A DNA stretch of 64,000 nt from Catajapyx aquilonaris (lineage: Eukaryota): NCBI GenBank assembly GCA_000934665.2, contig JYFJ02001342.1, positions 1 through 64,000 of the forward strand, in the 5' to 3' direction. The first letter of the stretch is position 1. Every line of letters starts with the position of its first letter. Below, piece after piece: positions 49,901 through 52,900 of the stretch. The notes beneath the pieces are model-generated. The model was not told where the DNA came from, ran no database searches, and was given only the letters and a program-made list of their open reading frames with translations. The position numbers were made by a program, and so were the translations under genes.

Positions 49901-52900
49901 AGATTTTATACAGTACAGTTACAGTATTAGCCCCGGCGTTCTCTTCCATCCTGGAAGGCCTCTAACCTATGCGCCTCTCTTGTCACACTTGTTGCTTCCC
50001 TTGCAGGGGCAACAGTCAGAGGAGAACCTTACAAGGTCTCGGATCGAGGGGTTGGCCAATCCCTTTGTGCGCGCACCTCGGGAATAATTTTCCGTAAAAT
50101 ATCATTAAAGCCTTAATTATGCGATCACACGATGTCGTCTATACCCGTACAGTGCGAATCCCAGAAGTAGTTGATGAAATGTTTTTCTCGATCTCTTTCA
50201 AAACCTGTGGTTTTAAATGGTGCCCACAATTTTTCAGAACTTGTTGCACTGTACATTACAACTTAAGTCAGCACAATTGTGCCATTTAATACCAACGGTC
50301 TTGAAACCTGCCGAAAAACAAATGCAAGGGGCTAGAACTGGTCAAAATTTCCGCGTCAGGAATTCCGCCATGCAAGCCTGGATTCTAACACTGTATACAA
50401 TAAGTGATAATATTATAGTATTAACACTTGTAATCTTACTTATGTTACATCCGATGCACCAAGAAGTGTGATTCACAAAATATGAGAAACTGTGGGAATG
50501 GAAATAAATTAAGTCCATCTCAGACATGCAGCTCAAAATAGATAGTGAATATTGCCTTTCAAGTAAATACTGCACAGTACTAACAACTACGTAATTGGCG
50601 ACTGGGAAAGCAAAAGTAAATCTTACATTACAGTGGGTGTAAATCCACTTCGTGTCAAACAATACTTGGGCTACTACACTTTTATTGTTATTGCATTTAT
50701 GTAATTCTCTGGCAAGTTCACTAACAGTAAGTGTAAATAACCTGCATGTGGAATGTCCTCAACGTGAGTATAGACTTGCAACTACAAAACATTTTTGGGG
50801 AGTGACTTGTATTGCCACTTTTAGAGCTTTGGTCTTTCCAATACATTTGGTCGTATTTGGTTCAATTTAGACGGCATTGCAGTGTATACGTCGCGAGTAA
50901 TTGACAAAATTAATGCAAATAGATGAAAAGGAATTTCCCTGAGGACATAGGTGCCCAATATATTTGTTGCCTTATGCCCCACTTGCAGATACTTGGATTT
51001 TTTTTACTGTTTCTGATTTATGAATATTGTAAGTCGCTGCATAAGAGAGAATGCATAATATGCATAGATAATAATCATATGCAAGTTACTTCTTGATATT
51101 TATCCACTATTGATATGTAATTTGGCAAAACTCCCCCACTGTGGTCAGTTTATCCATTCCGATGTGAAGGTAACTTTTACCATCGTGCTGCAAAATTCTC
51201 TCGTATGGAAATGAGGAAAGTGTTTACGGGCATCTTTGTTACTGATTGCAGCAAACTTGTATGTGAACATAAATTAATCAAACAGGGGGATTGTTCGAAT
51301 TCATTATGATCTATGCCCAGTTGGTGCATCTCATGCTTTCCACTGTTAGTGAAATTTAATTTCATTATTGTCAATTTACGGACAACTTATTCTAACTATA
51401 TATTTGATAGAACTTTAATCAATGCTAATGAGCTGATGCATCATCGGTTGTCCTTCAACCAACACTGTTTCATGACCTGCTATGAAAATCCGAGATCTGC
51501 TTGAAATTTCCAAACAGTAGCTCTTTGTGATCTCTCAGTTCCCTCGGAAAGGCTGGCTCGTCCATATGCTTGTAGTAGTTATCCACCACGTATTGAAGGT
51601 CTCTCACAAACTCCTCTTCAGTCTCCAGAAGCTCCTGCACAACCGCCCTAGAGAAAAAAAACCGCAGTTAAAATCATATATTTTGTTTAATTAACTGAAT
51701 GTGACATACTCTCTCTTGGCACTGCAGTCAGCATTGGCCTCCAAGCGGCTGGTCTTTCGCTCTTCTGCCGTAATGGATTGACGATGCTTCTGGAGCACAG
51801 AGGCAGGCACCCATCCTTCCTGGGGTGGAGACGTCGGTGACGGCAGAGTCCTCACAAGCCACCTAGAAAATTAGTTGCTAATTAGCAGAGAGTTGTCCAA
51901 TATAATTCCATACAAATTGTGACTGGCTGATTCTGTGCCATATTTGCCTATCGTTAATAATATATTGCAGTATGAAGTAGGCCTATATCGTTTACCTGTG
52001 CTCCTCACTTGCTGATTCCTCAGCCACCAAGCCACGTTGCCTTATGTCCGCTTGTTTTCGACGAGGTCGGATGGCCATTTTGTGCCTGGCAGCTGAACTG
52101 TCCAGCAGGTCGTGGGTTTCGTCGCCGAGGTCAAACTCCACATCACCTTCCATCATACGTTGTCGTCTGTTAAGTGGGAGAAATGGTAAAATGTAATCTT
52201 CCATCTTCCCATTTTAAAATAAATTCAGTGTTACTCTGATCTTTCTGCATTTTGGTTCTTTACATGAAAAGGTCACACGATTACAAAAAAAAAATCCTGC
52301 CTCTTTCTCAAACGCATCCACCTGCTTCGCCATTTAGTCTTATTACTGGAAAAAAATATTCATAAATAGAACCAGGCTCTTAACACCCAACTTCCTTCGT
52401 GAAAAATGAACCAAGTGTTTATTATGAGCTAAAAATACGAGAGCAGGTGGTGATTAGCGACGGTGTGTTCTTCAAAGCAGACGCAGGTGTCATTAAGTCA
52501 TTTGGTGACCTATTACCAAGGTCCTCGCTCGACTCATTCATAGTCGCGAGCCTGAACCGACACATGTCGCAATTGGGTTGGCACATTCTTGGCGCACTTG
52601 CGCGGGATTTAAGCAAAGTAACCAATTCCGGTTGGTCCTGGCACAGGTTCGCAACCCTACTCTTGACTCAGACCTTGGACGCCTACTATTTTCACGCGTC
52701 ACGAGGACTTCTTTCTGTACTGCCTCACTCCACCCTTCCAGGTAACTACGTCGTCCGAAATAGCCCTGTGAAGAGGTGCAGCTGCATGCACCACAAGTCG
52801 TAAATTCATCGATAGAAGGGGCAGTTTTAGCACTTTTGTGTTACATGTAGGCAGTACACCTAAGAGCGGTTTGTCTGCTCGTTAATCAAAACAGTAGAAA

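Follow-up and report, generated by a model that had tools for sequence, protein, structure and literature searches.

What is an exon doing in the middle of an SH3 domain? The question is raised by a stretch of 64,000 nucleotides from Catajapyx aquilonaris (contig JYFJ02001342.1 of assembly GCA_000934665.2, positions 1 to 64,000), referred to here as the window, in which the two halves of the SH3 domain of an obscurin/Unc-89 gene are separated on the minus strand by a 171-nucleotide exon at 52166-51996, of phase 2-2 and bordered by ag and gt. We found that this exon preserves the reading frame whether it is included or skipped, that its counterpart occupies the same place in most insect obscurin models with a complete SH3 domain, and that its product matches the end of DUF4592, a domain of the CRACD/KIAA1211 proteins. 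The explanation we favor, and hold to be probable, is that it is a genuine coding exon of arthropod obscurin (Unc-89) that acts as an optional docking loop in the n-Src loop of the SH3 domain.

A frame-preserving exon conserved in arthropod obscurin

The exon, its conserved core and its immediate neighbors are placed as follows (vertical bars mark exon borders).

53169..53284, minus strand: SH3 exon A, 116 nt, with acceptor ctgcag|GGC and donor CGCCAA|gtgagc; strand a, RT loop and strand b of the SH3 domain, plus two bases of a split codon.
51996..52166, minus strand: the flagged exon, coding for the 57-residue predicted n-Src-loop insert (P0001); match to PF15262 with 28.6 bits, E 2.1e-6.
52055..52105, minus strand: conserved core of the insert, residues 21-37 of P0001, common to CRACD/KIAA1211.
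51710..51862, minus strand: SH3 exon B, 153 nt, with acceptor ttttctag|GTGGCT and donor GA|gtatgt; WLVR...EGWVPASVL (strands c to e), then the linker to the DH domain.
51479..51647, minus strand: first DH (RhoGEF) exon; Pfam RhoGEF with E 4.3e-10, tblastn match 51646-51479; its start is inferred from ccag|G and its 3' end is approximate.

The flagged exon begins at 52166 behind the acceptor ...ctcccacttaacag|ACGACA (in shorter form cccacttaacag|A) and ends at 51996 with the donor GCACAG|gtaaac (CACAG|gtaaac in shorter form). On three-frame translation a single frame is open and gives the 57 residues of P0001, and the two remaining frames contain stops. Its length is a multiple of three and its phases are equal, as expected of a cassette exon, so that skipping keeps the frame; when the exons were joined by script from the window sequence, the inclusion and skipping forms both ran open into the next (DH) exon, with the split codon before WLVR reading K if the exon is skipped and R if it is included. 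The first-pass annotation, made from the letters of the window, had described a 171-nucleotide phase 2-2 exon between two SH3 exons that leaves the frame intact either way, and its borders, length, single open frame and both joined products all hold. The start of SH3 exon A at 53284, absent from that annotation, is added here. The homologous first half in relatives of SH3 exon A is matched by SH3 profiles, and SH3 exon B is the target of tblastn with residues 139-170 of termite obscurin P0002 and has a weak Pfam match to SH3_KALRN (E 0.055).

By its domain order the gene is identified as arthropod obscurin/Unc-89 (SH3-DH-PH-Ig). Successive minus-strand open reading frames (ORFs) match RhoGEF (E 4.3e-10), an SOS1/NGEF-type PH domain (E 2.8e-9) and I-set (E 3.6e-14) in Pfam, which places an SH3-DH-PH triplet followed by Ig domains on one strand, as in obscurin.

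The nearest matches to the insert are a termite obscurin, with 72% identity over 36 residues, and a crab fragment, P0097, with 69% over 56% of the query. In a word-indexed peptide search the termite obscurin, which carries the same block between ...VEVLDTGPEPV and RWLVR, was the sole match at E<=0.01 among 29 candidates. When 1.84 billion representatives were searched exhaustively with phmmer, 7 proteins came back at E<=0.001, all of them obscurin-type fragments and all with the block; in P0006 and P0008 the block is followed by the second half of the SH3 domain and the DH domain. With the SH3-DH region of the termite protein we then collected 69 insect obscurins (proteins of 2924-5000 residues), which were classed by an insert-profile match just upstream of the DH domain together with a simple pattern for the first SH3 half. 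Among the models with a complete SH3 domain, 50 of 56 have the insert at the same place and 6 have none; the other 13 of the 69 begin downstream of the first SH3 half, including 7 from Schistocerca that start within the DH domain. The insert is seen in termites, Hymenoptera, Diptera, Coleoptera, Lepidoptera, Hemiptera and Odonata, and also in the crab fragment.

Since the same block stands at the same point in the termite and in 50 of 56 insect models, the flagged exon is more than a chance ORF, a candidate explanation that this conservation rules out. Compared with the public insect obscurin/Unc-89 models (termite, beetle, fly, bug and Neodiprion), the gene family, the insertion point and the exon boundaries are the same, and the window insert, at 57 residues, differs in its N-terminal part, which departs from the insect KRxKLDPxLDxG. 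The insert is thus already present in public gene models, some of which even carry a precomputed PF15262 match (Rhodnius P0052/53). It is undescribed in the obscurin/Unc-89 literature that we searched for the SH3 domain and splicing, a search with most subscription papers outside its scope.

The DUF4592 motif and the loop that carries it

Against Pfam PF15262 (DUF4592), P0001 scores 28.6 bits, above the gathering cut-off of 27, with an E value of 2.1e-6, and its residues 9-39 align to profile positions 91-121 of 124. CRACD proteins match the domain from 1 to 124, and the window exon covers 91-121 only. Judged from sequence, the exon carries the terminal motif of DUF4592, its last quarter, and not the whole domain. 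An alignment (A1) of the window insert with 17 insect inserts gave the same picture across the arthropods sampled: all 18 inserts match PF15262 at E<=0.01 (best E 2.1e-8), L21, D22, A25, H28, K29 and P34 are invariant, and the core follows the consensus L-D-x-S-A-A-[RK]-H-K-[LMI]-[SA]-[VI]-[RK]-P-[RK]-[RK]. Some relatives fall slightly below the PF15262 cut-off, such as P0097 with 23.6 bits and P0084 with 25.6 bits.

The likeness also holds from the side of the insert. A profile built from A1 gave 360 matches at E<=10 among 7998 scored candidates (5.8 billion proteins, 103-2000 residues), headed by arthropod obscurin fragments and followed by vertebrate CRACD/KIAA1211 proteins from E 3.9e-6 onward; the CRACD matches score 42-44 bits, with E of about 1e-5 in that collection. 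The counterpart of the insert core in CRACD is LDNSAAKHKLSVKPKK, and the matched stretch reads ...INLDAVPQAVARLDNSAAKHKLSVKPKKQR... and lies at the C-terminal end of DUF4592 (domain 153-281 and match 250-290 in P0109; domain 46-173 and match 150-178 in P0181). A single-sequence phmmer search with the insert found no CRACD protein at E<=0.001 among the 1.84 billion representatives; because that search gave obscurin-type fragments only, the link to CRACD needed profiles. The resemblance to the DUF4592/CRACD motif had already been pointed out in the first-pass annotation, and both the profile match of the 57-residue peptide above the family cut-off and the searches in the two directions agree with it.

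CRACD/KIAA1211 and the obscurin insert thus share the ...LDNSAA[KR]HKLSV[KR]P[KR][KR]... module that closes DUF4592, with reciprocal profile matches. They differ in setting: CRACD proteins have 1000-1600 residues, are otherwise disordered and contain the full 124-position domain, whereas here positions 91-121 are encoded by one exon within the SH3 loop of a giant muscle protein. A third kind of carrier was also observed. The non-obscurin proteins P0160, P0162 and P0188 (1097-1224 residues) have the whole EPDLEVGE... unit, including the insert motif, and P0160 and P0188 match no Pfam family at E<=0.01. CRACD may have its arthropod counterparts in these proteins, from which the obscurin exon might have come.

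Where the insert lies in the SH3 fold was addressed with sequences of relatives, not with the spliced product of the window itself. In the form that skips the exon (first 128 residues of P0059), the SH3_2 profile matches unbroken over positions 1-53 of 55, with 33.8 bits, and SH3_1 over 1-48 of 48. In forms with the insert the first SH3 half alone is matched (SH3_1 6-26 of 48 in P0084; SH3_2 3-33 of 55 in P0080), followed by the DUF4592 motif, and the human obscurin SH3 domain (1v1c) likewise aligns to the first half alone of P0006. In the AlphaFold2 model of P0084, a beetle fragment with the insert, both flanks of the insert contribute to a predicted five-stranded barrel, with strands at 15-18, 37-42, 99-104, 111-115 and 119-121. 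The block-mean predicted local distance difference test score (pLDDT) is 76-88 for the strands of the first half and 83-85 for those of the second, and below 50 for insert residues 49-93. A structure search with this model against 48,161 PDB representatives placed SH3 domains at the top, with Z scores from 10.0 and spanning model residues 12-121, among them the SH3 domain of Hck (Z 10.0) and the first SH3 domain of Nck (5qu2_B; Z 9.6, root-mean-square deviation 1.2, 56 of 56 residues). The skip form was modeled as a compact SH3 domain with pLDDT of 86-91 over residues 51-105.

In these models the insert forms a long n-Src loop that links strand b to strand c next to the peptide groove, and its low model confidence indicates that it is probably disordered. 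They also bear out, on relatives, the earlier proposal that skipping yields a compact SH3 domain (an unbroken SH3_2 match and high pLDDT), with the barrel intact around a low-confidence loop when the insert is present. One part of that proposal has to be reworded. The 57 residues had been placed just before the ligand-binding Trp, and the insertion does lie just before WLVR; in the accessible text of PMC4865318, however, the classical groove Trp of the obscurin/UNC-89 SH3 domain is reported as replaced by Arg or Lys. The replaced position would be the residue from the split codon, and the W of WLVR would be the next one. According to the same text, the worm UNC-89 SH3 domain binds paramyosin and its peptide groove appears degenerate, and the fly obscurin SH3 domain was modeled as compact, the insert being unmentioned in that part of the paper (PMC4865318).

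Plausible optional use, a proposed docking role and the alternatives

Is the exon optional? The clearest indication comes from sawflies. In Neodiprion fabricii, isoforms X7 (3926 residues) and X8 (3872 residues) have in common an 85-residue prefix and a 3787-residue suffix and differ solely by 54 residues between ...HAESAK and VYVRT, that is, at boundaries homologous to those of the flagged exon, and the same 3926/3872 length pair is listed in four Neodiprion species. These with/without pairs are predicted models and are the sole clean isoform pairs. The remaining two insert-less models, P0058 from Polypedilum and P0068 from the aphid Uroleucon, are each a lone "hypothetical protein", and relatives of both have the insert (Chironomus P0040 and Acyrthosiphon P0057). 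Inclusion is therefore the commoner annotated form, 50 versus 6. Taking the exon structure and the sawfly pairs together, optional use of the exon in this gene is plausible. As a separate observation, the exchange of K (skipped) for R (included) before the next strand, noted above for the window, is also found in the Neodiprion pair P0019 versus P0059.

An optional exon in this position has a known parallel. In neuronal N1- and N2-Src, as described in the available portions of PMC5318895 and PMC4509517, the SH3 domain gains a longer n-Src loop through an optional exon, and with it another ligand specificity. The neuronal inserts are far shorter and reshape the groove only, with no motif of their own, whereas the obscurin insert has 45-58 residues and a separately conserved motif. 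By analogy, a loop of 45-57 residues beside the groove should also alter the ligand range of the obscurin SH3 domain, as the much shorter Src inserts do. The SH3 domain with its insert sits in front of the DH-PH RhoGEF unit, and in the mechanism that we propose the exon would serve as an optional docking loop whose inclusion presents a linear motif to a partner. Both an effect on SH3 ligand binding and a cytoskeletal docking role, as already put forward in the first-pass annotation, may thus reside in the insert.

The likeliest partner would be the heterodimeric actin capping protein (CapZ), which CRACD binds and inhibits through capping-protein-interacting (CPI) motifs. The accessible text of two papers states that CRACD binds and inhibits CAPZA/CAPZB and that a mutant without these motifs fails to restore F-actin (PMC13631292, PMC9949038). 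The CPI consensus, LxHxTxxRPK(6x)P, is given in the parts available of three others, where it is described as disordered until it wraps the stalk of capping protein (PMC4598739, PMC9282853, PMC12803934), and the R of RPK is named as a critical contact in the CPI motif of CARMIL (PMC12803934); CPI binding is lost in the R15A/Y79A mutant of CP-beta (PMC4598739). The H-x4-[RK]-P-[RK] spacing of the insert core is that of the CPI motif, and the pattern H.{4}[RK]P[RK] occurs in 65 of the 69 obscurin-type and 104 of the 105 other proteins that match the insert profile. The CPI proteins (CARMIL, CD2AP/CIN85, CKIP-1, CapZIP, WASHCAP and the twinfilin tail) likewise have a disordered basic motif with H, four residues and [RK]-P-[KR]; their L, T and distal P are not conserved in the obscurin insert. 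Because capping-protein inhibition is the sole known activity of the one characterized carrier of the module, binding of CapZ appears to be the single most likely specific function of the motif; in absolute terms we would give it only a minority chance. The full CPI consensus is absent from the window insert, and we have not filed the motif as a CPI motif. Neither "CPI motif" nor "DUF4592" was found in the literature searched, the former in papers on obscurin/Unc-89 or alongside "CRAD".

Several points weigh against an optional, capping-protein-binding loop. Of the seven residues fixed in the CPI consensus, the window insert has just three unchanged (H, R and P), with K changed to R; the L, T and distal P are absent, and R stands at the distal position. 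The insert profile found no match at E<=10 among all PDB chain sequences, hence no solved CPI peptide is alike at the profile level. UNC-89/obscurin is located at the M-line, and CapZ caps barbed ends at the Z-disc. The accessible text of the CRACD papers leaves the location of its capping-protein-interacting motifs unstated, without residue numbers (PMC13631292, PMC9949038). The P0084 model has a mean pLDDT of 57.3 and was built from a shallow 12-sequence alignment. Finally, the skip models P0058 and P0068 may be annotation gaps in which the exon was missed, and the exon could be constitutive in Catajapyx aquilonaris.

This last possibility amounts to an alternative explanation, in which the exon is a lineage-specific loop that is always spliced in, giving a long-loop SH3 domain, and the forms that lack it stem from faulty annotation or from rare noise transcripts. 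The presence of the insert in 50 of 56 complete-SH3 models speaks for it, as does the fact that in species besides Neodiprion with several listed isoforms every complete-SH3 isoform has the insert (for example Tribolium castaneum P0032-35, Rhodnius P0052-54 and Lutzomyia P0025/27), and P0058 and P0068 are lone hypothetical-protein models. It does not readily account for X7 and X8 of Neodiprion, which differ by exactly an exon-sized block of 54 residues with homologous boundaries in four species, nor for an exon length that is a multiple of three with matching phases in both the window and Neodiprion, and the skipped product is predicted as a confident SH3 domain. We therefore regard a constitutive loop as rather unlikely. 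Far less likely still is that the resemblance to DUF4592 reflects convergence of a short, low-complexity basic stretch and not common descent. Only about 30 of the 124 profile positions are matched, and the single-sequence phmmer search gave no CRACD at E<=0.001 among 1.84 billion representatives, as convergence would allow; yet the profile matches run both ways, PF15262 being matched by all 18 inserts and CRACD by the insert profile. The core hardly differs over its 16 residues, and the likeness continues upstream into a (L)D-x-x-L/P...G/A stretch; of the 10 CRACD alignments listed, 7 begin at profile position 8-9 and the three mammalian ones at position 16. The non-obscurin proteins of 1100-1224 residues moreover carry the whole PDLEVGE... 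unit. Chance convergence with DUF4592 thus seems very unlikely.

More open to debate is what the motif does. It may have a function other than capping-protein binding, as a basic patch for nuclear import or lipid binding, a site regulated by phosphorylation, or a pseudo-ligand that autoinhibits the GEF by folding onto the SH3 groove or the DH domain, and we see this as a serious competitor, if one that probably does not hold. The core is strongly basic, with [RK]-P-[RK]-[RK]-x-H followed by S/T-rich sequence, and the insert adjoins the peptide groove directly upstream of the DH domain; the incomplete CPI consensus and the lack of a PDB match for the insert profile point the same way. However, the invariant L-D, A, H-K and P reach well past the basic patch and recur position by position in CRACD, which is known as an inhibitor of capping protein, and in the models the insert is not docked with confidence on the SH3 domain, its pLDDT remaining below 50. 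A bipartite nuclear-import signal was considered separately and dropped, the two basic clusters being about 27 residues apart, a distance too great for the classical form. An optional docking loop stays our preferred explanation of the exon. The further idea that its core is an old, portable capping-protein-binding motif, captured by arthropods as an optional exon in the obscurin SH3 domain, is put forward tentatively and may well prove wrong.

Surrounding exons and implications for obscurin

With termite obscurin as tblastn query, the DH and PH exons follow one another in the order 51646-51479, 48788-48612, 45781-45689, 44886-44719 and 44102-43732, and further I-set exons were matched by Pfam on the same strand. 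The gene runs toward the lower coordinates, and the window may not include its 3' part. In front of the SH3 exons, a 1318-residue open frame (58476-54520, minus strand) is homologous to the N-terminal extension seen in long insect obscurin models, with E 5e-159 for one from Microctonus and E 1e-157 for one from Blattella. F-[VI]-[PA]-G occurs 25 times in this frame, in most cases at intervals of 14 residues, and the frame matches no Pfam family; neither it nor the insert had a usable match in the ESM Atlas. Through a candidate donor, GAG|gttaga past 54616, the frame would be spliced in phase to SH3 exon A. Between the PH and Ig exons lies a 269-residue ORF (42391-43200, minus strand) that is rich in E, K, P and V, resembles PEVK sequence and has no Pfam match; this ORF could be an exon for an elastic linker within the obscurin gene. 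A remnant of a DDE_3 (Tc1/mariner-type) transposase is found at 62213-62674 on the minus strand (Pfam E 6.8e-10), covering profile positions 80-146 of 146 only.

Obscurin/Unc-89 organizes the sarcomere, and the partners of its N-terminal SH3-DH-PH unit are poorly known. An exon with a CRACD-type motif, found from crab to flies, supplies a concrete partner hypothesis, capping protein, together with a natural with/without pair. It further confines the conserved key part of the uncharacterized DUF4592 to about 30 residues, which should be useful for work on the tumor suppressor CRACD. Should the motif prove to do nothing special, the exon would still encode an unusually long optional insert in an n-Src loop. 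If the capping-protein hypothesis is true, the function of DUF4592 would be pinned to its last 30 residues, one obscurin splice form would recruit or inhibit CapZ next to the RhoGEF unit while the other would present a plain SH3 domain, and obscurin would be an isoform-specific regulator of thin-filament capping.

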